Source of the DNA: Litorimonas sp. WD9-15
Lineage (GTDB): Bacteria > Pseudomonadota > Alphaproteobacteria > Caulobacterales > Maricaulaceae
NCBI RefSeq assembly: GCF_050271975.1
Contig: NZ_CP189850.1
Coordinates: 2,282,551 to 2,346,550, forward strand
Direction of reading: 5' to 3'
Length of the DNA: 64,000 bases
Shown: positions 39,733 through 57,119 of the stretch, piece by piece
Layout: each line of letters begins with the position of its first letter
Numbering within the stretch: the first letter of the stretch is position 1
Notes under the pieces: model-generated
The model's input: the letters and a program-made list of their open reading frames with translations, nothing else
Told to the model about the DNA's origin: nothing
Database searches by the model: none
Made by a program: the position numbers and the translations under genes

Positions 39733-41090
39733 GACTTTTTCTTCTGTTTTAGCTTTTCTTGAACAGCGCGGAAACGTGCGCCCCAGCCATCCTTATTAAC
39801 TTGTTTCGACCGCGCGAGCGCAAGCGCATCATCAGGTACATTCTCGGTCACGACTCCGCCGGAGCCGAGAAATGCGCCAGCACCGATTGTAACGGGCGCG
39901 ACAAGCGAACTGTTCGAACCGACAAAGGCCCCGTCTCCAATGATGGTCTTATGCTTGTTATATCCATCATAATTGCAAGTAATCGTGCCTGCGCCGACAT
40001 TGACACCCTCGCCCAATTCCGCATCACCAACATAGGAAAGGTGATTGATTTTACTGCCTTTTCCGACAATAGCTTTCTTCGTTTCCACGAAGTTTCCAAC
40101 TTTCGTATTTTCCGCCAAATGCGTTCCGGGACGGAGGCGGGCAAATGGTCCGATCTGCGCATTCTCTCCAATGTCTGTACCTTCAATATGGCAGAAACTA
40201 TGGATTGTCGCGCCCGAATGGACGGTAACACCCGGACCAAAGACGACATTCGCATCAATGCTGACATCCGGTTCAATCATTGTATCATAGGCGAAGAAGA
40301 CGGTCTCAGGATGTTTCAAACTCACACCACTACGCATAGCGTTCTCGCGCATAACGGTTTGAAATGCTGCCTCTGCACGCGCGAGATCAGTCCGGTCATT
40401 GACACCGAGCACTTCGGTTTCCGGCGCATGAACGACTGTGGCGGCTTTTTTTTCTCCGCGCAGAATTTCTACGATATCTGTGAGATAATATTCGCCCTTG
40501 GCATTGTCATTTGTGACACGGTCACAAGCCCCAAAAAGATCAGCGGCAGACGCCGCCAAAACGCCCGAATTACAAATCCCTATCTTTAATTGCTCAGGTG
40601 AAGCCTCTTTCGCCTCAACGATGGCGTGGAGGTCATTTCCGTCCACGACCAAACGGCCATAGGCGGCAGGATCTTCCGGTTCAAACCCAAGGACGGCGAG
40701 AGAATGAGTCTCAAACGCTTTGAACACGCCCTCTAGGGTCGGAACAGAAATTAACGGCGTATCCGCATAGAGCACGACAACATGACCGTCGAAATCCCGC
40801 AGGGCCTCCTTCGCACATTGCACGGCGTGGCCCGTCCCCATCTGCGGTTCCTGAATAGCAATATCGAGACCGAGGTCGCGTGCGGCAGCTTGGACATCCA
40901 CATTGCCCTCCCCGACAACACAGACAATCCGTTCAATCCCCGCATCACGGGCCAGCGATGTCACCCAGTTCAACATGGGGCGCCCGCCCACAGGATGTAG
41001 GACTTTCGAGCGAGCGGATTTCATCCGCGTGCTTTTCCCAGCGGCAAGAATGATGGCGGCGCGTTTAGTTGCAGTGTTCATAGGACTCAT
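39729..41090 (-). CDS. glmU: bifunctional UDP-N-acetylglucosamine pyrophosphorylase / glucosamine-1-phosphate N-acetyltransferase
   Basis: 453 aa; N-terminal AIILAAGKSTRMKS nucleotidyltransferase motif, C-terminal left-handed beta-helix hexapeptide repeats. Confidence 0.9.
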   Translation of the reverse strand: MSPMNTATKRAAIILAAGKSTRMKSARSKVLHPVGGRPMLNWVTSLARDAGIERIVCVVGEGNVDVQAAARDLGLDIAIQEPQMGTGHAVQCAKEALRDFDGHVVVLYADTPLISVPTLEGVFKAFETHSLAVLGFEPEDPAAYGRLVVDGNDLHAIVEAKEASPEQLKIGICNSGVLAASAADLFGACDRVTNDNAKGEYYLTDIVEILRGEKKAATVVHAPETEVLGVNDRTDLARAEAAFQTVMRENAMRSGVSLKHPETVFFAYDTMIEPDVSIDANVVFGPGVTVHSGATIHSFCHIEGTDIGENAQIGPFARLRPGTHLAENTKVGNFVETKKAIVGKGSKINHLSYVGDAELGEGVNVGAGTITCNYDGYNKHKTIIGDGAFVGSNSSLVAPVTIGAGAFLGSGGVVTENVPDDALALARSKQVNKDGWGARFRAVQEKLKQKKKS

Positions 41091-41158
41091 CTAATCGGAA
41101 TTTCTTAGTGGAGCTAGCGTATCGCGCGACAGACCGCACGGATTTTCGAAAGCTAAAT

Positions 41159-41857
41159 ATGCAAAAACTGCCTGCGCCCCTTTTATCAGGTCTCAGCATC
41201 GCTTTTGATCTCGACGGGACTCTTGTCGAAACAGCGCCAGACCTCGTTCGGGTGACGAGTGAAGTCATTGCGACACGTGGACACGGACCTGTTAACTACA
41301 AACTCGCCCGGGCAGAAGTCGGATATGGTTCACGTAAAATGCTGCGCACGGCTTTGAACGCCGTTGGCGATCAGGTGAACGAAGCCGATATGGATGATTT
41401 GCAAGCGCTGTTCCTAAAACTCTACGCCGACAGCCTCGACCACCTCTCGCATCCTTTTCCCGGCGTTGAAGAGACGCTCATCACATTAAATGCGCTGGGC
41501 GCAGAACTCTCAGTCTGTACAAACAAACCCGGCTGGCTCGCCCGACCCTTAATGGAAAAGCTCAACCTAAGTCGTCACTTCGTAAGAATTATTGGGGGAG
41601 ATGATGTCCCACGCAAGAAACCGGATGCGGATCATATTTTCGCGGCCGTGGGGCACCGCAACAGTTGTCGCATCATCATGGTCGGGGATAGTTGGCCGGA
41701 TATGCGGTCCGCGCAAAATGCTAAGGCTTTTCCGATCCTTATGACCTATGGCTATACGCCCTTACCCCAAATACGATTAAGGGCCGGATCACGATTATCG
41801 CGGTTTCGCGATATCGTGCCGACCCTTCAAGCCCGCATATCTGCAGGCCGAATTTAG
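41159..41857 (+). CDS. gph: HAD-superfamily hydrolase, phosphoglycolate phosphatase-like
   Basis: Start at MQKLPAPL; motif I FDLDGTLVET, motif III K, motif IV GDSWPD. Confidence 0.7.
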   Translation: MQKLPAPLLSGLSIAFDLDGTLVETAPDLVRVTSEVIATRGHGPVNYKLARAEVGYGSRKMLRTALNAVGDQVNEADMDDLQALFLKLYADSLDHLSHPFPGVEETLITLNALGAELSVCTNKPGWLARPLMEKLNLSRHFVRIIGGDDVPRKKPDADHIFAAVGHRNSCRIIMVGDSWPDMRSAQNAKAFPILMTYGYTPLPQIRLRAGSRLSRFRDIVPTLQARISAGRI

Positions 41858-41863
41858 TTCGAT

Positions 41864-42064
41864 TTAACCGAAATTTTCAGTCGAATTCGTTGGAACGCCG
41901 TTCACGAGGTTAGAGCGGACATCTGTCCGCGCGGAGCGCATGGAGGCTAAAAATCCACCTTGTATCAGGTTCACACGGACATCATGTCCACGTTCCGCCC
42001 AATAGGCTTCGATTTGCTCTTTCAAGCGTTCTGCGCCTTCGCGCGTGCAATAATCACCTTTCAT
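41864..42064 (-). CDS. small hypothetical protein (66 aa)
   Basis: ORF MKGDYCTREGAERLKEQIEAYWAERGHDVRV...; no family recognised. Confidence 0.3.
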   Translation of the reverse strand: MKGDYCTREGAERLKEQIEAYWAERGHDVRVNLIQGGFLASMRSARTDVRSNLVNGVPTNSTENFG

Positions 42065-42480
42065 AACAAGGCCCTTTTTTATGTTAGCAGCGGGTCAATC
42101 TGACCGCGCCCGCGTTTGTTACTTCCCTTACCAATAAAGTAAGAAGCCTCAGTTCGTATTCAATCCGAATTATAGGGTTTTCTTATAAAAATTGGTAATC
42201 TTCGCGGAAACTGCGTTTAACATGCAAGTCCGCATTGACTTGCGGGGCTATAACTCTGGCGGGCTTTTTTGCAAGTGAATAACAGTGAATATTATCATTC
42301 AAACCTAAATAAATTTGAATATTAATAAATAACTTCTTCTGAATTCTAGCCCGAGATTACCGAGATAAAAGCGCAAGAATTTAACGGGCGATCATATCTT
42401 TATCGAACGGATTATCGAAAAGACGCAATCCAAATTTTCGAAAAATCGATTGGCCACATTACTGCCCTTATTGACCCGCC

Positions 42481-43290
42481 TTAACCCGCTGGGTCGCTCA
42501 TCGCTTCCATATTGGCATCGGCTTGTTTGATTGCCGCTTCCAGGCGTTCTTCAGCCGTTTGTAGGTTCTTCTTCGGATCCTGATAAAAGGCCGTGAGCTT
42601 CATAATGTTGAGAAACGTCTTGTTCAGCACGCGACCGCCTAGCTTCATTGGACGGTCGAAATCGAATAAGAGAATGACGCGCTCTTCGTCGGTGTCGTTC
42701 CAGACCTCGTGCTCATAGGTGTCGTCAAACACAAAAATCTCCCCCTCTTTCCACGGCGTGATCGTATCATCGACGCGAATGCGACACTGCTCACGATCCT
42801 TTGGGATGATGAGCCCGAGATGGGAGCGCAGAATACCCTTGGTCACACCTTTATGGGCGGGAATATGATATCCGGGCGCGAGGATAGAGAACATGGCCGT
42901 CTGAAGATTCGGCACTTTTTCGAGAATATCAGAGGTTTTCGGCGCTAGTGCCGCATTTTTCTCCAACCGTTGACCAAATCCGAACAGCACGAATGTTTTC
43001 CAGTTATTCTCTGTTGAGAGACGGTACTGGTCCGGCGAGACTTCGTGAAATGTCGGAATGGCATCGCGGAATTTCAGGACCTCACGCGCTTCCACCTGAA
43101 TGGTTTCCCAATTCTCAGTGAAATCCTTCAGGAATGGGAAGTGATCATTCGCGATCTTGGGCGTGTCGGGCACTTTAGATTGTCCACTTTGAAACTTCGC
43201 AATTTTGCGCACGAGTTTCTTGCCATTCCGTTTGACGAAAGCCCGGCGTGGGTTGGTCAGATGTTTGGGTTTCTCAACAGGTGTAGCCAT
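42481..43290 (-). CDS. aspartyl/asparaginyl beta-hydroxylase family 2-oxoglutarate/Fe(II) oxygenase (LpxO-like)
   Basis: Start at MATPVEKPK; C-terminal HKGVTKGILRSHLGLIIP...FDDTYEHEVWN 2-His-1-carboxylate pattern. Confidence 0.7.
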   Translation of the reverse strand: MATPVEKPKHLTNPRRAFVKRNGKKLVRKIAKFQSGQSKVPDTPKIANDHFPFLKDFTENWETIQVEAREVLKFRDAIPTFHEVSPDQYRLSTENNWKTFVLFGFGQRLEKNAALAPKTSDILEKVPNLQTAMFSILAPGYHIPAHKGVTKGILRSHLGLIIPKDREQCRIRVDDTITPWKEGEIFVFDDTYEHEVWNDTDEERVILLFDFDRPMKLGGRVLNKTFLNIMKLTAFYQDPKKNLQTAEERLEAAIKQADANMEAMSDPAG

Positions 43291-43301
43291 AATTTGGCGC
43301 T

Positions 43302-44522
43302 TTACCCCTGCGCGCGTTCTTCGTCCACCATGTAATCCCGCGTGACGGGCAGCGCATGCACATCCTTTGTCAGCTGGATTTGGAAATTCATATGTTTGCC
43401 GAGTTGGAATGAGAGCTCCGAGATGGAGAGGTAAAATTCCCACATGCGGAAGAATTCTTCCCCCATCATCTCAACGATTTCGGCCTTTTGCGCCTGACAG
43501 CGCTTATTCCACTCAGCCAGCGTGTAGGCGTAATGAAGGCGCAGGATTTCACAATCCGAGACCCAGAGTCCCGCCTTCTCAATTTCAGCAAATGTTTCGG
43601 ATAAGGCAGGAGAATATCCACCCGGGAAAATATATTTTCGGATCCACGCACCGGTCGTGCCGGGACCACCCTTCCGGCCAATCGAATGCACAAGAGCGAC
43701 GCCCTCATCCGTTAGCAATTCACGTATCGTCTCAAAATATTCGGCAAAATGCCCGATCCCAACATGTTCGAACATTCCGACAGACACGATGCGGTCAAAA
43801 GGGCCTTCAACATCGCGGTAATCCTGCAATCGGATATCGACGAGATCTTCGAGGCCAGCGTCTTTCACCCGCTCTATTGCGAGGCTGTGCTGTTGAGTCG
43901 ACAGTGTAACGCCCACGACTTTGACGCCGTGTTCTTTCGCAAGATGCATTGCCATGCCGCCCCAGCCACACCCGATATCCAATACGCGCTGCCCGGCTTT
44001 CAGGTCCAATTTCGCCGCGATATGGCGCTTCTTGGCGAGTTGCGCCTCTTCCAGTGTCATGTCTGGGTCAGAGAAATAGGCGCAGCTATATTGCATGTCC
44101 TCGTCGAGGAACATTTTATACAGCTCGTTCGAAATATCGTAATGCGCCTTGACATTGGCCGAGCTGGCCGCGCGCGGATTGCGTTGATGCCAGCGTTTGA
44201 TTTTCTTATTCCACGCTTTGACTTTCGACCGAATAGGCCCTTTGCGGAGGCCGTCACGATTATTTGCGAAGACAGTCAGGAAATCATGGATCGTACAGTC
44301 GACCATTTCCAAACGGCCATCCATATAGGCTTCGCCCGCCACAAGTTCTGGGTTCTTCACTAACGCCATTGGAAGCGCAGTATCATTGATTTTGATTGTG
44401 GCCGATGGCTCTCCGCCTGACCCATAGGTGGTGGACGTGCCGTCAGGCAATATAACGGTCAATGCACCCTTCGATACGAAGCGCTGCATGACTTTATCTA
44501 ATAGAGTAGTACCGAGTCCCAT
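43302..44522 (-). CDS. cfa: cyclopropane-fatty-acyl-phospholipid synthase
   Basis: 406 aa; SAM motif VLDIGCGWGGMAMHLA and CFA family pattern ...VSVGMFEHVG. Confidence 0.9.
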   Translation of the reverse strand: MGLGTTLLDKVMQRFVSKGALTVILPDGTSTTYGSGGEPSATIKINDTALPMALVKNPELVAGEAYMDGRLEMVDCTIHDFLTVFANNRDGLRKGPIRSKVKAWNKKIKRWHQRNPRAASSANVKAHYDISNELYKMFLDEDMQYSCAYFSDPDMTLEEAQLAKKRHIAAKLDLKAGQRVLDIGCGWGGMAMHLAKEHGVKVVGVTLSTQQHSLAIERVKDAGLEDLVDIRLQDYRDVEGPFDRIVSVGMFEHVGIGHFAEYFETIRELLTDEGVALVHSIGRKGGPGTTGAWIRKYIFPGGYSPALSETFAEIEKAGLWVSDCEILRLHYAYTLAEWNKRCQAQKAEIVEMMGEEFFRMWEFYLSISELSFQLGKHMNFQIQLTKDVHALPVTRDYMVDEERAQG

Positions 44523-44564
44523 CTAAACGTTTTAGCCGAGTCTAGAGCTGACTCCAATCACGTT

Positions 44565-45320
44565 TTAGATAACAGCGAAGCGTTGACGCGCCATTTCGGA
44601 ATTTCCAAACAGCGAACGGCAGATTTCGTAATCTTCCGGCGTATCCAATTCGGACCAATCGGCACCTTTAATGTTGATTGTATCGATACGTTGTCCGGCC
44701 TGTGCCAGTCCGTGGATCGCAGACAAGAACCAGCTTTTCGTGCCGTCACGTGTCTTCATCAGGCGTTTGAGCTCATTGCGGAATGTCTTGGTACCCTCAC
44801 CCATAAAGCGAAGCATGCCGATGGATTCGCCGTCAGTTTCGGTCAATGGTAACGTCTTACCAATCGCCGTCAGACGCGGCCCATCGAGCGTGACCTTCAT
44901 GTCGTCGCCGTCATAATAACCCTTCTGGTCAATCGTGACGGCAATATGTGTTTTCGGTGCCGCAAGAATCGTTTGGAGCAATTCCGGTGAGAACAGCGTA
45001 TCGCCGTTAATGAGAAGGAAATCTTTCTTCATCGACTTTCGTGCCATCCAGCAAGAAGCCAGATTATCTGCAACTTGGAAGAAAGGGTTATAAAGCGTTT
45101 TGACCTTCGGCCCGGATTCACGCGCATCAATTTCGGCTTTGACCATGTGGCTATTAAAGCCCGTAATGACGGTCGCTGTTTTGACCCCATGTGCGAAAAG
45201 TGTGTCCAATTGCATACCCAAAACGGTCGTATTCCCGATGGGGAGAAGACATTTCGGCAAATTTGTTGTCAGCGGCAGGAGGCGTGATCCGCGGCCTGCG
45301 GCGAGAATAATAGCGTGCAT
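44565..45320 (-). CDS. small sugar/alcohol-phosphate nucleotidyltransferase (NTP_transferase family; LicC/IPCT-like)
   Basis: 251 aa; MHAIILAAGRGSRLLPLT...PKCLLPI signature G-rich loop of nucleotidyltransferases. Confidence 0.7.
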   Translation of the reverse strand: MHAIILAAGRGSRLLPLTTNLPKCLLPIGNTTVLGMQLDTLFAHGVKTATVITGFNSHMVKAEIDARESGPKVKTLYNPFFQVADNLASCWMARKSMKKDFLLINGDTLFSPELLQTILAAPKTHIAVTIDQKGYYDGDDMKVTLDGPRLTAIGKTLPLTETDGESIGMLRFMGEGTKTFRNELKRLMKTRDGTKSWFLSAIHGLAQAGQRIDTINIKGADWSELDTPEDYEICRSLFGNSEMARQRFAVI

Positions 45321-45349
45321 TGAAAATCCAGCCTGTATCTTTGTCTTTT

Positions 45350-46021
45350 CTACTTAGACCAATCAACGGTTTCAAAACCATGAATGGCCGCCTCGCGAGT
45401 GAGTTTCGCATCAGCATTAACGGCCACGCCTTTGTCCGCAAATTTTAAAACGGGCAAGTCGGAATAACTGTCTGAGTACATAGTGATATGCGCTGCCTCA
45501 CGTTGGAAATCATCAAATGTTTCCAAACGTTTCGCCAGCATGTCCAATTTTCCGGGGCCATAGCAATTCTCGGAGCCAAAATAACGGGCGCATTTCCCGT
45601 CTTTCCACGCGAGTTTTGTACAGATCACCTCGTCAATGCCCAAGCGTTTGGCGATGGCTTCAACAACAATATCGGCTCCGGCGGAAGCTATGATAATTTT
45701 ATCCCCGGCTGCACGATGAATATCAAGCTGTCGGACAGCCCCGGGGCGGAGGCCATTTGCAATTTCGTTATCTGCAAACTTGTCGGCTAAAGCCTCCAAA
45801 ACGTCACGGCTTTGCCCAGACAGACTCCACCGTAACATACCCCGTTTGACGGAAATGCGCTCCGTTGAACCGACCTTGTAAATCAACTGTCCAAATCCGG
45901 CTCGCGCCCATAATCCAACTAGTTTCCAAGGCATTCCTTTGACAGAAAGCGAGACATACCGCCCCCACGTCCCACGGGTCGTGATCGTCTCATCCAGATC
46001 AAAAATCGCGTAACACTTCAC
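45350..46021 (-). CDS. HAD-IB subfamily phosphatase
   Basis: 223 aa; motif I FDLDETI; abuts upstream gene (46021/46022). Confidence 0.7.
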   Translation of the reverse strand: MKCYAIFDLDETITTRGTWGRYVSLSVKGMPWKLVGLWARAGFGQLIYKVGSTERISVKRGMLRWSLSGQSRDVLEALADKFADNEIANGLRPGAVRQLDIHRAAGDKIIIASAGADIVVEAIAKRLGIDEVICTKLAWKDGKCARYFGSENCYGPGKLDMLAKRLETFDDFQREAAHITMYSDSYSDLPVLKFADKGVAVNADAKLTREAAIHGFETVDWSK

Positions 46022-48529
46022 CTACGCGTCCATCCAGCTCGCGAGGGGGCGTTTGGCGAGAAGGCCCGCGATCAATGTACAGAAATTGGCGAAAATACAG
46101 ATCCAAGTCCACGCCGCAATCAGGAGGAACGCCCAATAACCTGCACCCGCAAAGACCACTGTAAGCATTATCCCGATCATCATAATGAACGTATTCGGGT
46201 TTCTTCGTGCGATGAAGAACCGAAGACCGGAATTAAAACGCGTCCAGACGTGAATATGAAATCCGTGCTGGCGCATAAAGATACCTTCAATCACGCGGTC
46301 CACGACATAGCCCACCCAAATCGCAAGCAGCGCGATAAAGAGCGGGTCGGACATTTGATACGTTCCGCCCAAACCGATCATCCACGCCCAGTACCAGAAG
46401 GGTGGATGGACGAGATCAATCCCGTGGTCATAAATATTGCCCCAATAGGAATAGGTCATGGTCGTCCGCGCCAGCTTCCCATCAACCGTGTCCAAGAAGG
46501 TCATCGTCCAGCCACACAGGAAACCCAGCGCCCAGAATTCATTCCAGAAGAACCATGTCGCCGCCAGCATCAGGAAGAAACCAACAGTCGTCACCTGATT
46601 GGGAGAAAGGCGCAGCCAAGCGCAGAACCGCGTGACATAAAAAGCCGGAACCGGCCAAAACCACTTCGTCACGAAATCGGTAATGCCTTTGTAAGAGGAC
46701 TTAAACTGACGCCGCATAATATCGAGGATAGGTGTCTCGTTCGTATCCAACACATAGGGCGCCTCCTGCTTGCGCAGGGATTTGATATAACCGTCATTCA
46801 CGTCGGAGGGGGCCGCGACAACGAAGTCTTCCCCTGCAAGTGCGTCAACCGTATTGCCGATGAAGCGCTCTGCCTCTGCCTGCGTAGCTGTAGAGAGACT
46901 GACGATCACACCGTTCTCTACGAGGGCCGTTCGTTCCGTCTTCGCAAAAGACTTGGACAGTTCTGCGGACATAATCCAGTCGACATGGTGCCAAATGCCT
47001 TGATCATTCACCTCAAGTGGAAGCGTGACATCCGCACCCGCTTTCTTGAACGCCCTGACCTGCCATTCCTTCAGGGGCAACCCCCAAATCTTGGCATCGG
47101 TTTCACCGATCAGGCCGAATCCCGGCGCTGTATTTTCCATTGCTGTTTCCGCTCCATGTGTTCGGGCTACGACTTTATCTAAAGCTTGTTTGGCAAGGAA
47201 GAGCAGAAGCCCGACCGCCACAAGATTTCCGGCAATCGCCGCCCATCCCGGTGCCATATGACCGATTGTAAAACTCAGGATGAAAAACGAAACAATATAA
47301 ACGAAAACCCCTGCCCCGCGCGCGTAAATCGCGCGTTCGGGATGATCCGTTGCATAAAGGACCGGGTAGAGAGGCGCCGCCATACCTAAGAGAGCTGCCG
47401 CAGGAACCAGTAAACTCGCAAGCGGCGCAGACTCGATATAATCCTGTGGTAGGAAAGACCCCAATAAACCACCCAAGAAGAGCCATATGAACAGGGAAAC
47501 TGTGAGGCCGAAAACCAGTAATATAACGGCTGTTTTAATGACCAGCCGCCAAATCTTGGCCGCCTCTCCCATCGTGACCATTTTCGCCAATTCCGGATAA
47601 ATAACTTGATCGAGGAGCTTAAACCCTTCGGAAAGAAGCTTCGCAATCTCTTCTGCAATGCGGTAAATCGAAACCCAACCCGCCCCGAACACTGCCATAA
47701 CAAGCAGCACTGGAAGGTGAACATTTGAAGCGGCGAGTGTCGAGTCGATATTTGCCTTAATCACGAAGGGCCAAACGCCCTTGCGCGGATTCAGAATATT
47801 CGATTTCGCCCTTAGAACAGGTTTCAACAATCGCCGTTTCCGCAGCTCAATCGCGGCGAGAAGTGGCATCGTCAGATAATCTGCCAGTGAGCCGATGAAC
47901 CAAGCAAGTAAGAAACCTTCCAGGCCCGCGCCTAATTGCGCAGCAATAACGACGCCGACAAAGCGAACCGCCGGCATAATAACGCCGTGCCACGCCAGAA
48001 CGTCAAAACGGTCAAAAAGACGGAAGACACCTATCGATGTGCCGCGATGGCGCAGGAGTAGCAGTAAGGAGTAGAAAATAACAAGTGTCTGCAATGTGCG
48101 AATATCAACAGACTGCCCGTCACGCTGGAACAGAGCTGGGAAACTTTCCGCAATGAAAACAACAAGCCAGAAACAGCAGACAGCCCCGATAAAGGCGACG
48201 ATCGCCGACAATATATCAAGCTTATAACCAAATTGCAGAAGCCGCGCGAGGCCCGTCGCATCATCATTTTTGACATCATCCATGCCAAACCGAATGATCG
48301 TTTGCCATGCCTGAAACGTCGCGAGTTGTGCGAAGAAAAGGTGATAGGCGTGAATAAAAAGGATAACACCCAAGGCCGCCACACTGAGGAATTTTGCCGC
48401 AATCAAAAGACTGCCAAGACCCAATAAGACTGACAGCACTTTTGAACCGACCATCAGCCCCGTATTGGCGGCGATACGCTTGCCGACGGAGTCAGTTGAA
48501 GCAACGGTCAGATTAGGCGATGTCATCAC
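46022..48529 (-). CDS. fusion protein: N-terminal MprF-type flippase-like polytopic domain + central soluble domain + C-terminal CDP-alcohol phosphotransferase domain
   Basis: 835 aa; ~8 TM helices in first 330 aa; C-terminal DTVDGKLARTTMTYSYWGNIYDHGID = D-G-x2-A-R-x8-G-x3-D-x3-D motif at approx 46400-46495; start overlaps upstream stop (ATGA). Confidence 0.75.
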   Translation of the reverse strand: MMTSPNLTVASTDSVGKRIAANTGLMVGSKVLSVLLGLGSLLIAAKFLSVAALGVILFIHAYHLFFAQLATFQAWQTIIRFGMDDVKNDDATGLARLLQFGYKLDILSAIVAFIGAVCCFWLVVFIAESFPALFQRDGQSVDIRTLQTLVIFYSLLLLLRHRGTSIGVFRLFDRFDVLAWHGVIMPAVRFVGVVIAAQLGAGLEGFLLAWFIGSLADYLTMPLLAAIELRKRRLLKPVLRAKSNILNPRKGVWPFVIKANIDSTLAASNVHLPVLLVMAVFGAGWVSIYRIAEEIAKLLSEGFKLLDQVIYPELAKMVTMGEAAKIWRLVIKTAVILLVFGLTVSLFIWLFLGGLLGSFLPQDYIESAPLASLLVPAAALLGMAAPLYPVLYATDHPERAIYARGAGVFVYIVSFFILSFTIGHMAPGWAAIAGNLVAVGLLLFLAKQALDKVVARTHGAETAMENTAPGFGLIGETDAKIWGLPLKEWQVRAFKKAGADVTLPLEVNDQGIWHHVDWIMSAELSKSFAKTERTALVENGVIVSLSTATQAEAERFIGNTVDALAGEDFVVAAPSDVNDGYIKSLRKQEAPYVLDTNETPILDIMRRQFKSSYKGITDFVTKWFWPVPAFYVTRFCAWLRLSPNQVTTVGFFLMLAATWFFWNEFWALGFLCGWTMTFLDTVDGKLARTTMTYSYWGNIYDHGIDLVHPPFWYWAWMIGLGGTYQMSDPLFIALLAIWVGYVVDRVIEGIFMRQHGFHIHVWTRFNSGLRFFIARRNPNTFIMMIGIMLTVVFAGAGYWAFLLIAAWTWICIFANFCTLIAGLLAKRPLASWMDA

Positions 48530-49263
48530 TGACGGTCTGCCAAAATCTGCTCAACCAGTTCGAGGTCGGACGGTTTATCAACGTCAATCGCAGCTTCGGC
48601 AAATGGGATCAGAACTGGGGCCGCCGTAATGCCGATGCGGCCTGCGGCATATTCAAAGGCGCCGCCCAAAGACAACCGCCCCGCCGCGAATTTGATCCCG
48701 ATACCGACCCCGACTTTTTTGGCCAATTTGAGCGGGTTTTTGCGCAAATGCTGAACCGACTGCCAGAATGCGATGGCTTTTAGGCCGTCCTCATTCGCAA
48801 TATAAAAGAGGTTGCACCCCGATACGGCGTAGTCAGAAAAGCGGAGATAGGTCCGTTTCGTCGTTGGATATTCAGCTTGAATAACCTCTTCTGTCGCGAG
48901 ACCAACACAAATATCTGTCCCTTCGGCCACGGCTCCGGAAACAAACGCTTCAACCATTTCGGGTGCCAGAAGCGCATGATCACAAGTCGTCACAAGGCAG
49001 GGATAGGTATCAATGTCTTCTAACCCCAAAAGGACACTATCCGCAGGTCCCTCGCCGCTGGGCACTTCTGTCAAGTCACTGCCCGAATAGCCGGAGATAT
49101 GAGGTGTCGGCATATTTGCGTCGGACAGCGCCGTACGAACACGGTCCAACATAGAAATGCCCGCCACAGAAATTTCCGCCTTGTGCGATACGCCCTTCGC
49201 CTCACAAAGCGGATCTACCACGCCTGCACGCTGCCCTGCCAAAATGAGAACGCTTGCGACCAT
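48526..49263 (-). CDS. MobA/CofC-like (NTP_transf_3) nucleotidyltransferase
   Basis: Start set at MVASVLILAGQRAG (glycine-rich NT loop); 245 aa; overlaps neighbours at both ends. Confidence 0.55.
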   Translation of the reverse strand: MVASVLILAGQRAGVVDPLCEAKGVSHKAEISVAGISMLDRVRTALSDANMPTPHISGYSGSDLTEVPSGEGPADSVLLGLEDIDTYPCLVTTCDHALLAPEMVEAFVSGAVAEGTDICVGLATEEVIQAEYPTTKRTYLRFSDYAVSGCNLFYIANEDGLKAIAFWQSVQHLRKNPLKLAKKVGVGIGIKFAAGRLSLGGAFEYAAGRIGITAAPVLIPFAEAAIDVDKPSDLELVEQILADRQ

Positions 49264-49264
49264 G

Positions 49265-50419
49265 TCAGCCGATCCGTTTTTCATACATGCGGTAAGTTTT
49301 ATAAGGCACGGCGCTGGCTTGCTCACAAATTGAAATCATGCCGTCATTATCCTCGAGAATCCAAGACAGCTCGCAATAGGTATAGCCCTTTTGGCGCGCG
49401 GCTTCGAACACAGTTTCGCACAGAGCTGCAACAAGTCCGAGCCCCTTGCGCGTGCCGTGATGTTTTGTACGGAGTCCCATCAGCGGCACCCGCGCCTGTT
49501 TCGCCTTCCCAGACTTTAGACGGTAAATAAGCTTGGCCCAATTGAACGGGAAGAGTTTCCCATCAAAGCCCTTTGCCAATTCGTTCAAGTCCGGAATCAG
49601 GCAGATAAAAGCGGCGGGCTCCCCGTCAATCTCGCCTATATAAAAACAATCCGAAGCAATGAGCGGTTTCATCTCTTTGGCGAGGTGCTGGATAGCGTCA
49701 TCCGGGAATTCTAGGAATCCCCAATTATTGCCCCACGCATCGTTGAAGATGCTCATGGCCAATTCGATATCGCGCGTGAAATTCTTTGGATCGAGTTTCC
49801 GCCAGCTTACGGCTTTGGACTTGGTCGCATAATCAACCATCATGCGTGTCACTTTCGGGCGCGGATATCCGGCGTGTAAATCCGCTTGAAAGGCGTACAT
49901 ATCAATCGCTTTGGCATAACCAGCCGTCTCGACCATGTCTTGATAATAGGGTTTGCCATATGACATCAGGACGACATTGGGACTATCAAACCCTTCAACA
50001 AGGAGGCCGACCTCCTCATTCACGCCCCATTGCGCAGGGCCGACCAATCGCTTTCGGCCTTTGTCTTTGGCCCATTCATCGGCCCTATTGAGGAGCATTT
50101 TGCCGAGTTCCGGATCATTTTCGCAATCAAAATAGCCAAAAAAGGCTGTTTCAACATCGTGCTGTCGATCATGGGCGGGATTTGTAAAAACCGCAATCCG
50201 GCCAATAATCGCGTCTCCTCTAACCGCTAGAAATAACGAGCGGTCCAAGTCTTTCGCAGCTGGATTCTTTACAGGGTCTAGCTGCTCTTTGCGCTCCAAC
50301 CTTAATGGCGGCGCCCAACTCGGATCCCCCCGATAAAGATCATAGGGCAAGTCTAGGAATTGCTGGACCTGCGCCTTTGTTTGAACGGAGACGATTTTGA
50401 TGTCGGCATTGGTCGGCAA
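49265..50419 (-). CDS. GNAT-fold N-acyltransferase, two-lobed ~384 aa (candidate lipid N-acyltransferase)
   Basis: Length and paired GNAT-like halves; first gene of the coupled operon. Confidence 0.55.
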   Translation of the reverse strand: MPTNADIKIVSVQTKAQVQQFLDLPYDLYRGDPSWAPPLRLERKEQLDPVKNPAAKDLDRSLFLAVRGDAIIGRIAVFTNPAHDRQHDVETAFFGYFDCENDPELGKMLLNRADEWAKDKGRKRLVGPAQWGVNEEVGLLVEGFDSPNVVLMSYGKPYYQDMVETAGYAKAIDMYAFQADLHAGYPRPKVTRMMVDYATKSKAVSWRKLDPKNFTRDIELAMSIFNDAWGNNWGFLEFPDDAIQHLAKEMKPLIASDCFYIGEIDGEPAAFICLIPDLNELAKGFDGKLFPFNWAKLIYRLKSGKAKQARVPLMGLRTKHHGTRKGLGLVAALCETVFEAARQKGYTYCELSWILEDNDGMISICEQASAVPYKTYRMYEKRIG

Positions 50420-50466
50420 TGCGATTCCCCCGCATCATTAAAAGTCCTGCAGGTATCGAATCCCTG

Positions 50467-51015
50467 TCAGGAAAGGTCAACCAGATGGATGTCGATGTCG
50501 ACGCCCTCCATCGGGACGTCAAATCCTGTCTCAGAGAATTTTGGAAGCCTTAGGGATTTGATTTCAGGGTTGTTTGACAAACCATAAGGCTCTTTGGGCT
50601 TAAAATTCCAAGCCTTTTTCAACCGGCGATCTCCGTCCTTATCGTGATAGCCGACGAGTGCATACTCGCCGGGCAGAGGCAGATTGATACAGACTTTGAC
50701 GGAACCGTCCTCTGCTGGAACACGAATACGGCGAAGTTTTCCTTTTTTCTTGAGAAAATCGCGCTCGCCAAACAGTTCTACCTTCACCATTCCAACTTTG
50801 GAGACATTGTGAATGGTGGCCCGAATCTGCAGAGCGCCCGGCACGCACGTGTCGGCTTTGTCTCGAGGATAGAGTTCTAAGCCGCGCTCCACACCTATTT
50901 CAGATAAGGTTTCTCGGAACTCATCATTGTCATCAGACCCATTATCCTGCGCGACCGCAAAACCGGCCGAGCCCATCATGCTCAAGATGACGAAAGCTTT
51001 AGACAGTTTTCTCAT
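50467..51015 (-). CDS. DUF2141-family secreted protein
   Basis: Start at MRKLSKAFVILSMMGSAGFAVAQ signal peptide; YALVGYHDKDGDRRL...PKEPYGLSNNPE matches DUF2141 core. Confidence 0.6.
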   Translation of the reverse strand: MRKLSKAFVILSMMGSAGFAVAQDNGSDDNDEFRETLSEIGVERGLELYPRDKADTCVPGALQIRATIHNVSKVGMVKVELFGERDFLKKKGKLRRIRVPAEDGSVKVCINLPLPGEYALVGYHDKDGDRRLKKAWNFKPKEPYGLSNNPEIKSLRLPKFSETGFDVPMEGVDIDIHLVDLS

Positions 51016-51133
51016 GTAGGCATTTGATTTCACGACGGTGTTTCCTTAAGCCTCACTGAACCCAAAAAAGGTCCTTAACAGCCATATGGGAAACGATTCC
51101 TCTGTCGTAAAGGCGTAATCACAGACCTGTCAT

Positions 51134-52369
51134 ATGGGCCGATTGAACCGATATATCCTGAAAAAAGCCTCGACAAGTGTCGGTGGGCTGGTCGTTTTCG
51201 CCTGTTGCGTTCTGCTAATGGAACGCCTGTTACGTATTTTCGAAATTGTTACAAATTCGACAAATCCTGCTTCTGACGCGACAAATATGATCGTGAACCT
51301 CCTGCCCTATTATCTCGGCATGGCGGTTCCGATGGCGTTGCTACTTGGCACAATCATCACGGTGGACCGCTTGTCAAAGTCGTCTGAATTGACCGCGGCT
51401 CTTGGTGCAGGCGTATCTCTTTTCCATATGACAAAGCCGTTCTTATGGCTCGCAATTTTCCTTGCAGGCCTGACCATGTTTATCGAAGGCTATATGCAGC
51501 CTGTTGGACGGTATAATTATCGCCAGGTTCTTCACGTCGTGAAACAGCAGAGTTTTACGGCGGCCTTACGAGAAGGCACGTTTACGGAAGTCTTAGACCG
51601 TACTTTTTTTGCGGGCACAGATTCGCCTGATGGCTCCATCGGACCAATCTTCATTTACGAAATGGTGGATGATGTGAACGCGAACGGAGAGCCCGTCAAA
51701 GGCTATCGCATTACAACGGCGGGCAAAGGCGAAATTACAATTCGCGATAAAGTCGATAATGCAAAAACAGGCGCACCCGTTTTGAACCTTGCAGAAGGGC
51801 GCGGTTTTCAAGTTTTGAATAGCACACTTTCGGGACAACTTGAATTCGGCGAGTTGACTGTTGCGGGCGCGACGAGTGAGACGGAATATCGCGTACGCGG
51901 TGATGATGAGCGGGAAATGACATCACTGGAGCTCTTTGCGAACCGTAAAGGTTCTGCTACCTCAAATATTGATCAAAACACAAATAACGCAGCGCTTCAC
52001 CTTCGCGTTTCCAAAGCCGTCCTTCTGATTTTACTTCCCTTCATCGCCGTGCCCTTCGGCCTGAACTACGGCCGAAACCCCTCCTCTGCCGGAATTTTTG
52101 TTGGCGTGGTCTTTCTGGTCTCACTTCAAAAAGCACTGGAATTTGGACAGTCATTGGGGGCGGCTGGAAAAATCCCGCCTTGGCTCGGCATTTGGGGGAT
52201 TATTGGTGTCGTCGCGATCTTCGCCTTCTTCCTGTTTTGGAAAAGCGCCTATAAAATGGGTCAGCCGCCTCTCACCTCATTCTCGCATTGGGTGGGACAC
52301 ATCAAAGGCGAGCTGCTTGGTGCGCTTAAGAAACTGACCCGCGACCGAAGGATCCCACAGGATGTATAG
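51134..52369 (+). CDS. lptF: LPS export ABC transporter permease LptF (YjgP/YjgQ family)
   Basis: 411 aa; MGRLNRYILKK... six TM with large periplasmic beta-jellyroll insert. Confidence 0.85.
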   Translation: MGRLNRYILKKASTSVGGLVVFACCVLLMERLLRIFEIVTNSTNPASDATNMIVNLLPYYLGMAVPMALLLGTIITVDRLSKSSELTAALGAGVSLFHMTKPFLWLAIFLAGLTMFIEGYMQPVGRYNYRQVLHVVKQQSFTAALREGTFTEVLDRTFFAGTDSPDGSIGPIFIYEMVDDVNANGEPVKGYRITTAGKGEITIRDKVDNAKTGAPVLNLAEGRGFQVLNSTLSGQLEFGELTVAGATSETEYRVRGDDEREMTSLELFANRKGSATSNIDQNTNNAALHLRVSKAVLLILLPFIAVPFGLNYGRNPSSAGIFVGVVFLVSLQKALEFGQSLGAAGKIPPWLGIWGIIGVVAIFAFFLFWKSAYKMGQPPLTSFSHWVGHIKGELLGALKKLTRDRRIPQDV

Positions 52370-53441
52370 GTTTGGCCTCTACATATCGAAGACTTTTCTC
52401 TTCACATGGCTGACCGTCGTCTTTGGGTTTCTAACATTGATCGGCCTGCTCGACAGTCTCGCGAATGGCGGAGATATTGTCGCCGATGGCAGTGGTTTTG
52501 CAGGAACGTTCAAATATATGTTTCTGCGCGCCCCTGTGATTTTTGACCGTATCTTTGTCTTCACCCTCGTCGTCGCAATCCTATTGACCTTCGTTAAACT
52601 CATCCGGCAACATGAGTTGGTTGCCCTGCTTGGCTTTGGCATATCCGCCACAAAGCAAGTCTGGCTGATGACGCCCGCCGTTGTCGGTGCGGCTATCATG
52701 TCGGTCATCTTTATCGACCTCGCCATGGCCCCCGCCGTTCGTTCATTACAAGCTTGGGGGATTGGCGAATATAAGGTGAAAAATATAACGGCGGAAAACC
52801 CGCTCTGGCTGGAAGATCGTGGTCGTATCGTGCGGGCCACAGACCGCCTTGGTTATAATAGTCTTGGTAATCTCAAGTTCTTCTTCCGAAGCGAAACCGG
52901 AGAAGTCGAACGCATTTGGCATGCCGAAAAGGCGGATTATCAAGACCCCAACTGGCTGTTGACTAATGTCGAGCAACTGGATGTCAAAGACGCGGACGGG
53001 GAGTCGCGAGAGCTTCGACCCGTCGCAGGAACGCGGGTTTGGGAAACGCGACAAACACCCACATCAATCGCCCGCCTCGCCGCAGAGCCGCGGGACCTCT
53101 CATTGTCCGAAATGCGGAATTTCTCCAAACGCGGCAATAGCGGGTCAAAACCAAGCTTTGCTTATAAATTCTGGCACGCACACCGTCTCACACGTCCCCT
53201 CGCCGCTTTCATATTGCTCATTGCCTGTGCTGCTCTCATGCAGCGGACAGGCCGTGAAGATACGGGCGACAAGACACTCATCATCGGCATTACGATGGGT
53301 TTTGTATTCCTCATCATTGACGGCGCGATGGCGACCTTTGCGGCGTCGGGCGGGATGGGTGTCCTACCCGCGATTGCGATACCACTGCTTCTCTTTGGAG
53401 TTACGGGCGCATATCTTCTGTTGAAAACAGAAAGTCTGTAA
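52362..53441 (+). CDS. lptG: LPS export ABC transporter permease LptG
   Basis: 359 aa; MYRFGLYISKTF...; 8-nt overlap with lptF. Confidence 0.85.
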   Translation: MYRFGLYISKTFLFTWLTVVFGFLTLIGLLDSLANGGDIVADGSGFAGTFKYMFLRAPVIFDRIFVFTLVVAILLTFVKLIRQHELVALLGFGISATKQVWLMTPAVVGAAIMSVIFIDLAMAPAVRSLQAWGIGEYKVKNITAENPLWLEDRGRIVRATDRLGYNSLGNLKFFFRSETGEVERIWHAEKADYQDPNWLLTNVEQLDVKDADGESRELRPVAGTRVWETRQTPTSIARLAAEPRDLSLSEMRNFSKRGNSGSKPSFAYKFWHAHRLTRPLAAFILLIACAALMQRTGREDTGDKTLIIGITMGFVFLIIDGAMATFAASGGMGVLPAIAIPLLLFGVTGAYLLLKTESL

Positions 53442-53449
53442 ACTTCGCT

Positions 53450-54349
53450 ATGAGACGGCTCTTCATAGTCAATTCTTTGTCAGAGCGCGTCGCACGTAAG
53501 GGCTCCGTTCTGCATGAACTCTACGGCGATACAGACGATATTTTTTATCTGGATCCTTTCGACTACCTCCCATCCACTGTTGAGAGAGCAGCGATAGACA
53601 AGGTCGAACATGTCATCATTGAAGGCGGAGACGGGACTGTTCAGGGCGTCATATCCGAATTTCTCCGACAAGAAGACAGGTTCGCAAATTTTCCAAAATT
53701 CTCCATCATCCCGGGTGGCATGACAAACCAGGTTGCCAAGAATATAGGTTTTGCGTCGGCGAGCCCACATAGAGTTAAAACAAAACTCGCGTCAGAACTC
53801 TCACCAACTAACAACCCACTTCTCATCGCGTCTGAACTGGACGGCCCTGATTATTCCGGTTTTCTCTTCTCGACTGGCGCGATTCCGCAGATCACACGCT
53901 ATACGACCGGCCAATTGCACCGCAAAGGGATTGGCGGATCATTGGCCGTGTTTGGCGGTATTCTCAAAGGTATTCGTGGCGACGACGCGACGCTGATGCA
54001 ACTGACGTCTGTTCATCTTGATGATCTCTATGAAGGTGAACATCTGGGCACAGTTATCACGACCCTTCCCGGTCTCATCTTGGGTCTCGACCCGTTTTGG
54101 GGAGAAGAAGAGGCTCCGCTTCGCCTGACTTGGGTGACGTCAGGTTATAAAAAACTGGGCCGCAATATTCTTGGCTTATGGCTGGGTCGCAAATCAGTTG
54201 ATCGCCGCAAAGACGGCATCTTCTCAGTCTGTCGTAACGAAATTAATTACAGCTATTCCGGCCCCGTCGTGTTGGACGGCGAATTTCTTTCATTCCCGTC
54301 AGGCAAATTTACTGTCCGCGCCAGCCGTCCTGTGACATTCCTACGATAG
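53450..54349 (+). CDS. diacylglycerol-kinase catalytic-domain (DAGK_cat/YegS/LCB5) lipid kinase; candidate ceramide/sphingoid kinase
   Basis: 299 aa; IIEGGDGTV (GGDGT ATP-site motif), IPGGMTNQ. Confidence 0.75.
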   Translation: MRRLFIVNSLSERVARKGSVLHELYGDTDDIFYLDPFDYLPSTVERAAIDKVEHVIIEGGDGTVQGVISEFLRQEDRFANFPKFSIIPGGMTNQVAKNIGFASASPHRVKTKLASELSPTNNPLLIASELDGPDYSGFLFSTGAIPQITRYTTGQLHRKGIGGSLAVFGGILKGIRGDDATLMQLTSVHLDDLYEGEHLGTVITTLPGLILGLDPFWGEEEAPLRLTWVTSGYKKLGRNILGLWLGRKSVDRRKDGIFSVCRNEINYSYSGPVVLDGEFLSFPSGKFTVRASRPVTFLR

Positions 54350-55270
54350 ATGAGCACGGTTCTGGATATCATAAAGGGTGAAACACTCGACCCGCCGGCG
54401 CGCGTCACTGCTGTTATGGACGCGATTCGCGCCCGTCACACCGATCGTGTTCAGGCCATGGTGTATTATGGCAGCTCATTACGAGAGCTGGATAACTCGG
54501 AAAAAATGCTCGATTTCTATGTGCTAGTAGATAGCTACCGTAAAACCCATGGTACCGGACCACGCGCCCTCATAAATCGCCTCATACCTCCCGCCGTTTA
54601 TTACCTCGAAAGAGAGAATGAGGACGGCACGCTAAGCACATGCAAATATTCAATTTTAAGCCTGTCGGAATTTGAAAGGCGCTGTAGTTCCAAGGCCTTC
54701 CTCTCACAGGTATGGGGACGCTTTTCGCAACCCTGCGCAGTCCTCTGGTCTAAGGAAGAGACCGTCTTGGATCGTGTCTGGGCGGGACGCGTTAAAGCTG
54801 TTGAAACGATGGCAGCGGAAACAGCGCCACTTCTCGAAGGACGCGCAACTGCCGCAGTATTTTGGGGGCGCGGATTTTACGAGAGCTACCAAACTGAGCT
54901 TCGCCCCGAAAGCTCTACCGGACGCGCAGAGGAAATCGTCGCCCGATTTGCGGAACGCTATGAAGCGATCACGACAGCTCTTTACGGCGCACCGGATGAA
55001 AACGGTAATTATGAAATTCCGCAGAAACCTATCGGAAAAGCCAAGCGCAGATGGTTCTTGCGACGTCTCTTAGGCAAGCCTGCCGCCGCGATCCGCGTGC
55101 TGCTCGGAGCAGCGACATTTGATGGTGGGATTGATTATGTCGCCCGAAAGGTAGAGAATCACTCCGGAGTCAAATTGGACCCCACACCTGCGCAACGTCG
55201 TCATCCGGTGCTACATTCACCGTTTTTGTTCTGGAAACTATGGCGAAAAGGCGCTTTTCGGGCAAATTAG
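54350..55270 (+). CDS. Tam41/Mmp37-like nucleotidyltransferase-fold protein (mitochondrial-type CDP-diacylglycerol synthase homologue)
   Basis: 306 aa; MVYYGSSLRELDNSEKMLDFYVLVDSY...YYLE pattern resembling Tam41 family; abuts kinase gene (54349/54350). Confidence 0.5.
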   Translation: MSTVLDIIKGETLDPPARVTAVMDAIRARHTDRVQAMVYYGSSLRELDNSEKMLDFYVLVDSYRKTHGTGPRALINRLIPPAVYYLERENEDGTLSTCKYSILSLSEFERRCSSKAFLSQVWGRFSQPCAVLWSKEETVLDRVWAGRVKAVETMAAETAPLLEGRATAAVFWGRGFYESYQTELRPESSTGRAEEIVARFAERYEAITTALYGAPDENGNYEIPQKPIGKAKRRWFLRRLLGKPAAAIRVLLGAATFDGGIDYVARKVENHSGVKLDPTPAQRRHPVLHSPFLFWKLWRKGAFRAN

Positions 55271-56800: not shown

Positions 56801-57048
56801 CAGGACATCAATCCTTTTGCGGCCAGTGAAAGTTCGCCAACGGTTTTAATGTCGGACACCATCTCCATCGGAATTGAGATATCGTAATGATCTTCCAACT
56901 CCATAATAAAATCGAAAACGGCCACCGAATCGACCTCCAGATCCGACATAATGCCAGAAGACCGCTCAATCGGCAGGCCCTTGGGATTATACGGCTTCAA
57001 AAGCTCACAAATCTTATCGTAAATCTCTGACTCAGTGGGGGCGGTCAT
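56800..57048 (-). CDS. dedicated acyl carrier protein
   Basis: 82 aa; DLEVDSVAVFDFIMELE with phosphopantetheinylated Ser context; stop overlaps spt start. Confidence 0.8.
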   Translation of the reverse strand: MTAPTESEIYDKICELLKPYNPKGLPIERSSGIMSDLEVDSVAVFDFIMELEDHYDISIPMEMVSDIKTVGELSLAAKGLMS

Positions 57049-57119
57049 GGCAGTCTTTCATTTCAAACGTGCTCGTCGCTATCAAAGACAGCGCACGGCG
57101 TAAAGCCGTGCCCTCAGAC

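Follow-up and report, generated by a model that had tools for sequence, protein, structure and literature searches.

The window analysed here is a 64,000-nucleotide (nt) stretch of the Litorimonas sp. WD9-15 genome (contig NZ_CP189850.1, positions 2,282,551 to 2,346,550), and its centre of interest is a block of five adjacent minus-strand genes (Table 1). The initial annotation had presented this block as an undescribed pathway for a lipid with a phospho-head-group. All five open reading frames (ORFs) were found where it had placed them, and its domain calls were confirmed by Pfam and NCBIfam, namely a GNAT protein, an NTP_transf_3 nucleotidyltransferase, a protein with a CDP-OH_P_transf domain, a HAD-IB phosphatase and a LicC/IPCT-type NTP_transferase. 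Comparison with Caulobacter places the block in the synthesis of ceramide and ceramide-diphosphoglycerate (CPG2), a system that has already been described (Zik 2022, PMC9393093; Olea-Ozuna 2024, PMC11324152; Dhakephalkar 2025, PMC12275187).

The Caulobacter crescentus region CC_1152-CC_1168 encodes the bacterial ceramide synthase bCerS (CC_1154), a MobA/CofC-like nucleotidyltransferase (CC_1153), an NTP_transferase (CC_1152), CpgA (CC_1159, a PF01066 protein carrying a cytoplasmic domain at its N terminus) and a Wzx-like putative flippase (CC_1166), together with LptF2/G2, the ceramide kinase CpgB, CpgC, Spt, AcpR, CerR and AasR (PMC11324152). CC_1152 is CpgD, the CTP:phosphoglycerate cytidylyltransferase that makes CDP-glycerate (PMC12275187), for which crystal structures have been reported (PMC13228409). 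CpgA, CpgD and CC_1153 are each required in Caulobacter for the conversion of ceramide phosphoglycerate (CPG) to CPG2, the requirement for CC_1153 being genetic (PMC11324152).

A single genome scan with an alignment of the CpgA domain yielded 80 loci, each taken with 10-kb flanks and carrying an organism name; the locus from Caulobacter sp. BE264 (L025) was used as the reference. The published cpgD cloning and deletion primers match L025 with 0-2 mismatches, and its Pfam content corresponds gene for gene to CC_1152 to CC_1168, including the HIT, Metallophos, CerR epimerase and LptC2 genes. The L025 ORFs were taken as those containing tblastn matches, since greedy longest-ORF calling gave spurious ORFs in this high-GC locus. 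Best matches between the window and L025 agree in both directions for CpgD, CC_1153, bCerS, CpgA and CC_1166. The same agreement holds for LptF2/G2, CpgB, CpgC, Spt, Acp and AasR. The orthologs of cpgD, CC_1153, bcerS, cpgA, CC_1166, lptF2, lptG2, cpgB, cpgC, spt, acpR and aasR all lie within 15 kb in the window. These 12 orthologs, with the conserved active-site residues of CpgD, make up the likeness to the Caulobacter cluster (CCNA_01210-01226). The gene order is rearranged in the window, where the flippase and CpgA form one polypeptide, a HAD-IB gene is found without the CC_1158 metallophosphoesterase and the CC_1157 HIT protein, CerR, CC_1167 and LptC2 are missing, and a cyclopropane-fatty-acyl synthase gene (cfa) and an LpxO/OlsC-like hydroxylase gene are appended.

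Four of the five genes in the block, and five of its six domains, are thus reciprocal best hits of genes that genetics or biochemistry had tied to ceramide and CPG2 synthesis in Caulobacter (PMC11324152, PMC12275187, PMC9393093), and the proposal of an undescribed pathway falls. The broader idea of a sphingolipid head-group toolkit tied to spt is borne out by the Caulobacter orthology and synteny. We consider it highly likely that the block represents, in its Hyphomonadaceae (Hellea-type) form, the ceramide and CPG2 locus of Alphaproteobacteria. The pathway itself is already known; what look new, in a modest way, are the fusion of the flippase to CpgA and a HAD gene that is mutually exclusive with CC_1158.

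The product of the last gene in the block matches Pfam NTP_transferase and NTP_transf_3 and has a LicC/IPCT-type (COG1213) fold; its best sequence matches in the PDB are LicC (1jyk), PntC (6pd1) and a T. maritima entry (4jd0). It is the reciprocal best hit of L025:3520-4281 (49% identity, E 2e-67), the ORF bounded by the published cpgD primers. Contact residues were taken from the preprint on the crystal structures (PMC13228409), and nine of the 11 that touch CTP, Mg2+ or glycerate (G12, R16, T88, N90, T93, N110, G111, M147, K161, S170 and W201) are identical in the window protein. It conserves G12, R16, K26, N90, N110, G111, D112, M147, K161, S170 and W201 and carries the changes T88A, at a contact made by the backbone carbonyl, and T93S, which keeps the hydroxyl. 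From orthology and these residues the gene is assigned as the CC_1152/CCNA_01210 ortholog, encoding the predicted CTP:phosphoglycerate cytidylyltransferase CpgD. A phosphoglycerate-type head group, which had been offered as an example, matches the known CPG2 system, and the suggested logic of activation by a nucleotidyltransferase to CDP-X followed by transfer of phospho-X to a lipid agrees with the published model for CpgD and CpgA.

In the product of the first gene of the block, Pfam Acetyltransf_1 covers residues 224-363 in the C-terminal lobe (29.6 bits). This protein and the one encoded at the CC_1154 position of L025 are reciprocal best hits (37.5% identity over ~380 residues, E 1e-79). 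The gene adjoins a CC_1153-like gene in nearly all loci, and Spt, AcpR and AasR are encoded 5-8 kb from it in the window. The product is assigned as bCerS, the ortholog of CC_1154/CCNA_01212, on the strength of the reciprocal match, and would make the lipid backbone rather than, as first thought, acylate the head group. The adjoining nucleotidyltransferase matches Pfam NTP_transf_3, has the uncharacterised TTHA0179 (2dpw, E 1e-18) as its nearest PDB structure and is the reciprocal best hit of L025:4278-5129 (36% identity, E 2e-44), which identifies it as a putative MobA-like enzyme of the CC_1153/CCNA_01211 type. Its start is most likely the ATG at 49263. A reading of this 245-residue protein as CofC (2-phospho-L-lactate guanylyltransferase) was set aside, as Pfam gave only the generic NTP_transf_3 family and NCBIfam no match.

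The longest protein of the block joins two Caulobacter orthologs. Its N-terminal domain (residues 1 to ~461) is the reciprocal best hit of L025:17181-18512 (27% identity over ~440 residues, E 9e-39), and its C-terminal part (residues ~462-835) that of L025:9986-11113 (37.5% identity, E 1e-78). CDP-OH_P_transf (PF01066) is matched at residues 642-804, with 31 bits against a cut-off of 22 bits. The CDP-alcohol signature D-x2-D-G-x2-A-R-x8-G-x3-D-x3-D, read from the translation, is intact as FLDTVDGKLARTTMTYSYWGNIYDHGID, and this motif is invariant in two alignments (A1 and A2). The fusion was modelled with AlphaFold2 (AF2; mean pLDDT 80). Residues 14-461 of the model are all helical (pLDDT mostly 80-90), residues 469-610 form an α/β domain, and the third, C-terminal module is again helical. 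In Foldseek searches the N-terminal domain matched WzxE with a TM-score of 0.76 on the target, and MurJ and MATE proteins at E 1e-7 to 1e-5. The last two modules together matched AF2299, phosphatidylinositol phosphate (PIP) synthase and IPCT-DIPPS with TM-scores of ~0.7 on the target over ~380 columns.

The reciprocal best hits, together with these fold matches, identify the protein as a fusion of a CC_1166/CCNA_01224-type Wzx/MOP flippase and CpgA, the CC_1159/CCNA_01217 ortholog, an AF2299-like CDP-alcohol phosphotransferase. The CpgA part is modelled as a cytoplasmic α/β domain followed by a CDP-alcohol phosphotransferase membrane domain. The flippase-like character first given to the N-terminus holds in that the fold is a flippase fold, of the Wzx/MOP type according to Foldseek; an MprF-type flippase is ruled out by the same AF2 model and Foldseek matches. 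The N-terminal 460 residues share the fold of WzxE and MurJ (PDB 9g9p, 6nc6) at 13-18% identity, whereas the cargo in the window is presumably a phosphosphingolipid and not an undecaprenyl-diphosphate-linked glycan, and neither WzxE nor MurJ is covalently fused to a biosynthetic transferase. The CpgA part shares with A. fulgidus AF2299 and IPCT-DIPPS (PDB 4o6m, 4mnd) the cytoplasmic α/β domain, the six-helix transferase domain and the signature motif, with a TM-score of ~0.7 at ~17% identity. It differs from them in its proposed donor, CDP-glycerate in place of CDP-inositol, in a lipid acceptor and in the additional MOP flippase.

An exhaustive search of 1.8 billion representatives showed that the fusion combines two families that are normally separate, a membrane protein of ~460 residues (fusion residues 1-455) and a protein of ~380 residues (465-834). 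Stand-alone CpgA homologs of 375-400 residues align from fusion residue ~465. The 835-residue protein has its homologs in Litorimonas, Hellea and marine Caulobacterales related to these, and at the 50% identity level the same search gave only one other full-length fusion cluster. Four of 10 stand-alone flippase homologs match Polysacc_synt or Polysacc_synt_3, some above the gathering score, and PF01943 is listed among the precomputed annotations of several fusion homologs. According to the JBC 2024 paper no sphingolipid flippase has been identified, and the fusion thus provides circumstantial support for CC_1166 in that role.

CpgA is also found in other natural fusions, CpgA::DAG-kinase-like (diacylglycerol-kinase-like) proteins of ~740-790 residues (P0166, P0207, P0236) and an NTP_transf_3::CpgA protein (P0182). 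CpgA therefore appears tied to its pathway partners and to fuse with them repeatedly. The layout of P0182 is that of IPCT-DIPPS, which hints that the CC_1153-type nucleotidyltransferase supplies the donor to CpgA. One further candidate, a 1041-residue protein on a JGI contig (P0081), resembled a triple fusion of flippase, CpgA and HAD, but its last ~40 CpgA residues are scrambled; a frameshift or an error of assembly is the probable cause, and the protein was left out of the evidence. Separately, nine beta- or gammaproteobacterial loci (L037, L040, L045, L050, L051, L055, L059, L069 and L078) carry two CpgA paralogs each, most of them without a separate ceramide-kinase match.

The genes on the other side of bCerS extend the correspondence with Caulobacter (Table 1). 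The spt-acp-acyl-ACP-synthetase core (ACP, acyl carrier protein) was correctly placed near the block by the initial annotation, at a distance of 5.1 kb. The two LptF2/LptG2-like genes score under the NCBIfam equivalog cut-offs, and they probably encode a sphingolipid-specific ATP-binding cassette (ABC) permease pair and not the canonical lipopolysaccharide exporter, by analogy with the permease function reported for LptF2/LptG2 (bioRxiv 10.64898/2026.04.12.717747). The gap between acp and aasR is only 72 nt (57048-57120).

Table 1. Features of the window discussed in the text; names of gene products are predictions from orthology or family matches.
Feature	Position	Strand	Length or supporting evidence
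bCerS gene	49265-50419	-	384 aa
CC_1153-type nucleotidyltransferase gene	48526-49263	-	245 aa; longest ORF 48526-49326
Flippase::CpgA fusion gene	46022-48529	-	835 aa from GTG, 834 aa from ATG at 48526
Fusion, N-terminal domain	47147-48529	-	
Fusion, C-terminal part	46022-47146	-	
HAD-IB phosphatase gene	45350-46021	-	223 aa
CpgD gene	44565-45320	-	251 aa
LptF2 paralog (CC_1156)	51134-52369	+	Pfam LptF_LptG; best match of Caulobacter LptF2
LptG2 paralog (CC_1155)	52362-53441	+	Pfam LptF_LptG; best match of Caulobacter LptG2
CpgB ceramide kinase	53450-54349	+	DAGK_cat; reciprocal with L025 CpgB, 27%, E 2e-14
CpgC	54350-55270	+	no Pfam match; reciprocal with L025 CpgC, 31%, E 9e-36
Spt	55568-56800	-	Pfam; reciprocal with L025, 49% identity
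AcpR (small ACP)	56800-57048	-	Pfam; reciprocal with L025 Acp, 44%
AasR acyl-ACP synthetase (AMP-binding)	57120-58910	-	Pfam; reciprocal with L025, 44%
DUF2141 gene	50467-51033	-	188 aa; Pfam DUF2141; 47 nt upstream of bCerS
Cyclopropane-fatty-acyl synthase (cfa)	43302-44522	-	Pfam CMAS 315 bits and NCBIfam; 42 nt downstream of cpgD
OlsC/LpxO-family lipid acyl hydroxylase	42481-43290	-	Pfam Asp_Arg_Hydrox; NCBIfam OlsC 223 bits, LpxO; 11 nt downstream of cfa
GlmU-like bifunctional nucleotidyltransferase/hexapeptide acetyltransferase	39729-41090	-	
HAD_2 phosphatase	41108-41857	+	

The junctions of the block were read in the sequence and give spacers of 1, -4 (or -1), 0 and 29 nt. After the bCerS stop TGA comes a single base before the ATG of the CC_1153-type gene. 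The stop of the latter and the start of the fusion share the sequence GTGATG, so that the overlap is GTGA (4 nt) or TGATG (1 nt). The tight spacing described at first is therefore real, and the ATGA overlap reported at 48526-48529 was a trivial slip. The HAD gene begins with a GTG directly after the stop TAG of the fusion, in the same frame, and 29 nt separate it from cpgD. A metagenome contig of identical sequence (L081) had been annotated independently, with the same gene boundaries. Genomes of Hellea, Henriciella and Hyphomonas repeat this gene order, and thus the arrangement is not due to chance.

The co-directional, closely spaced run extends beyond the five genes and probably comprises eight. 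The DUF2141 gene is the probable first gene of the transcription unit. Loci of Hellea, Henriciella and Hyphomonas have it at the same position, and the published list of sphingolipid-cluster genes lacks it. At the other end, cfa follows cpgD also in L001, L002, L006, L008 and L009, and the pair of cfa and the OlsC/LpxO-like hydroxylase gene stands downstream of cpgD in these Hellea-type loci. The hydroxylase was called as a 269-residue protein on L081. The two enzymes may modify the ceramide acyl chains; the Caulobacter hydroxylase is an unrelated DesA-type enzyme encoded elsewhere. A promoter and terminator scan of 42000-51400 gave the same counts as shuffled sequences and so carries no information on the operon boundaries. 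Beyond the cluster lie the GlmU-like and HAD_2 genes, which are of ordinary housekeeping type.

A synteny survey was made of 51 CpgA-centred loci of at least 18 kb. Within 10 kb of CpgA, bCerS was found in 48 of the 51, a CC_1153-like gene in 49, CpgD in 44 and Spt in 38. This linkage identifies the block as a sphingolipid module and not a capsule, teichoic-acid or cofactor module, and co-occurrence with spt, which the initial annotation had set as a check on its proposal, is borne out by these counts, contrary to the refuting cases it had named. The suggested comparison with the Caulobacter cpgABC and bcerS loci likewise yielded orthologs by reciprocal best hits.

Comparison of gene order indicates how the window arrangement differs from that of its relatives. 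The published Hyphomonas neptunium orthologs HNE_1579 to HNE_1594 (Olea-Ozuna 2024) are collinear with the window and run in the same order: CpgD, (HNE_1580), CpgA, HIT, CC_1153, bCerS, (HNE_1585), LptF2, LptG2, CpgB, CpgC, Spt, Acp. In Hyphomonas locus L017 the HNE_1580 slot holds HAD, as in the window. The Hyphomonas order is CC_1153, HIT on the opposite strand, CpgA, HAD and CpgD, with the flippase far away as a separate gene beyond aasR, whereas in the window the flippase has moved in, the HIT gene between CC_1153 and cpgA is gone, and the flippase and CpgA are fused. Henriciella has the order CC_1153, flippase, HIT, CpgA, HAD, CpgD. In one Hellea-type locus (L008:8651-11158) the flippase (459 residues) and CpgA (375 residues) are separate ORFs that abut with no spacer, which represents either an intermediate with the two split or a fused gene that has reverted. 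Eight Hellea-type genomes, like the window, have the two fused and have lost HIT; the flippase::CpgA fusion is restricted to the Hellea-type clade.

The remaining gene of the block encodes a cytoplasmic HAD-IB phosphatase and is without a Caulobacter ortholog. The product matches Pfam HAD with 90.6 bits and TIGR01490 with 111 bits against a cut-off of 98.3 bits, and carries the motifs DLDET (residues 8-12) and DSYSD. Its nearest PDB entry (3fvv) and the TIGR01490 subgroup are uncharacterised. No mention of this gene was found in the sphingolipid-cluster literature searched, nor anything on CC_1153, CC_1166 or HNE_1580 beyond Olea-Ozuna 2024. In Hyphomonadaceae the HAD gene stands between cpgA and cpgD, and the CpgA-HAD-CpgD triad occurs also in a metagenome-assembled genome (MAG) of Kiloniellales, the genome of a Candidatus Nitrotoga and the MAG of an unclassified alphaproteobacterium (L034, L021 and L057).

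Among the 51 surveyed loci, HAD was present in 12 and a CC_1158-type metallophosphoesterase in 37; none held both and two held neither. The CC_1158 metallophosphoesterase contributes to the conversion of CPG to CPG2 in Caulobacter (PMC11324152). We read the HAD gene as a probable non-orthologous replacement of the CC_1158-type phosphoesterase, and such a replacement argues that the phosphoesterase function truly belongs to the pathway and is under selection. The substrate may be a phosphorylated intermediate of the lipid, a nucleotide by-product such as CMP, or a phosphoglycerate pool. A CDP-alcohol phosphotransferase gene adjoining a phosphatase gene recalls PgsA with PgpA/B/C and DIPPS with its DIPP phosphatase, and the trimming step for which the initial annotation took PIP synthase with PIP phosphatase as its analogy would be of this kind. 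In contrast to those systems, a phosphorylated intermediate in CPG2 synthesis would be hypothetical, and the window HAD belongs to the TIGR01490 subgroup.

Assembled from these assignments, the pathway would begin at the cytoplasmic face, where bCerS forms the ceramide backbone by N-acylation of the Spt product, an activity shown for the Caulobacter ortholog. CpgB would phosphorylate ceramide, as biochemistry and genetics in Caulobacter indicate, and CpgC would convert ceramide-1-phosphate to CPG, for which the Caulobacter evidence is genetic. CpgD would form CDP-glycerate from CTP and 2-phosphoglycerate, given the biochemistry and structure of its ortholog and the contact residues conserved here. 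In the published model, built on genetics, the CpgA module would then transfer phosphoglycerate from CDP-glycerate onto CPG, yielding CPG2 and CMP, and genetics suggests that the CC_1153-like nucleotidyltransferase is needed for the same step. We propose that the Wzx/MOP domain fused to CpgA flips the anionic lipid, once finished, into the periplasmic leaflet, from which LptF2G2 and LptB may extract it for transport to the outer membrane; LptF2G2-LptB has recently been shown to be needed when CPG2 is made (bioRxiv 10.64898/2026.04.12.717747). The HAD-IB enzyme may do the job of CC_1158, most likely by hydrolysing a phosphomonoester or a nucleotide by-product that would otherwise limit the conversion of CPG to CPG2.

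The HAD gene also admits a different account, in which the same gene families make another product: the CDP-alcohol transferase would generate a phosphorylated intermediate that the HAD trims, and the head group would differ from Caulobacter CPG2. HAD-IB enzymes are phosphomonoesterases, for example phosphoserine phosphatase and histidinol phosphatase, the close CpgA-HAD-CpgD arrangement (spacers of 0 and 29 nt) is kept in Hyphomonadaceae and seen again in the three genomes outside it, and neither the structure of CPG2 nor the chemistry of CpgA has been settled. However, the glycerate-contacting residues of CpgD are identical to those of the Caulobacter enzyme, which does not use 2,3-bisphosphoglycerate (PMC12275187), and the HAD replaces a phosphoesterase that merely enhances the yield of CPG2, suggesting the same pathway and not a new one. 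We regard such a variant product as unlikely.

An inositol- or polyol-phosphate pathway of the IPCT/DIPPS or archaetidylinositol-phosphate-synthase type, with the HAD as terminal phosphatase and either an inositol lipid or a compatible solute as its product, would account for the fold matches to PIP synthase, AF2299 and IPCT-DIPPS and for weak matches in NCBIfam. There the transferase resembles archaetidylinositol phosphate synthase, IPCT/DIPPS and PIP synthase, and the small nucleotidyltransferase resembles IPCT/DIPPS. These NCBIfam scores are 27-36 bits against cut-offs of 170-580, far below equivalog level, and reflect superfamily membership only, whereas the reciprocal orthology of CpgD (49%) and CpgA (37.5%) is much stronger, the glycerate-binding residues are conserved and the block sits in a sphingolipid locus in dozens of genomes; this reading is very improbable. 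Equally improbable is a capsule, O-antigen or teichoic-acid-like module, with a Wzx exporter and a CDP-alcohol transferase acting on an undecaprenyl-linked carrier, which the MOP/Wzx fold and the JGI name of the homologs ('O-antigen/teichoic acid export membrane protein/phosphatidylglycerophosphate synthase') might suggest, since the block contains no glycosyltransferase, polymerase or chain-length gene and is steadily linked to bCerS, Spt, CpgB and CpgC, with Caulobacter orthologs of demonstrated sphingolipid phenotype.

Several observations weigh against the assignment of the block as a Hellea-type ceramide and CPG2 locus. Homologs of CerR (CC_1164), HIT (CC_1157), CC_1158, CC_1167 and LptC2 were not found in the 64-kb window, and for a complete pathway CerR must be encoded elsewhere or be replaced. 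The searched literature contained no lipid data for Hellea or Litorimonas strains, including the source organism. Even in Caulobacter, the reactions of CpgA, CpgC and CC_1153 and the exact structure of CPG2 are unproven. The flippase domain is only 27% identical to CC_1166, the window fusion has no match to Pfam Polysacc_synt or Polysacc_synt_3 at E<0.01, and CC_1166 is itself a flippase by bioinformatic and cofitness proposal only. The exclusivity of HAD and metallophosphoesterase follows phylogeny in part, most HAD loci being from a single family, and the published CPG2 scheme needs no phosphatase, so that the role of the HAD is conjecture.

A more far-reaching proposal can be made tentatively, and we think it less probable than its negation. 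The fusion may reflect obligatory coupling of the last head-group transfer to translocation, CC_1166-type MOP proteins may be the missing sphingolipid flippases that feed LptF2G2, and the mutually exclusive HAD and metallophosphoesterase may reveal an overlooked phosphatase step of phosphoglycerate-sphingolipid synthesis, acting on a phosphorylated intermediate or an inhibitory nucleotide by-product.

Anionic CPG2 sphingolipids let Caulobacter survive without lipid A and are a target of polymyxin in that organism. The Litorimonas locus addresses parts of the pathway that are still open, the flipping at the inner membrane, the role of CC_1153 and that of the accessory phosphoesterase. The fusion acts as a Rosetta stone, physically joining the candidate flippase to CpgA, and stands at the end of an evolutionary series in which the two genes lie far apart in Hyphomonas, side by side in Henriciella and end to end in L008, and are fused in the Hellea type. 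For annotation, a 'GNAT family acetyltransferase' at such loci would become bCerS and a 'CDP-alcohol phosphatidyltransferase family protein' flippase-CpgA. The locus reveals no new pathway; it indicates that the known one is present in abundant seaweed-associated marine Hyphomonadaceae, where the fusion and the phosphatase swap provide testable leads.

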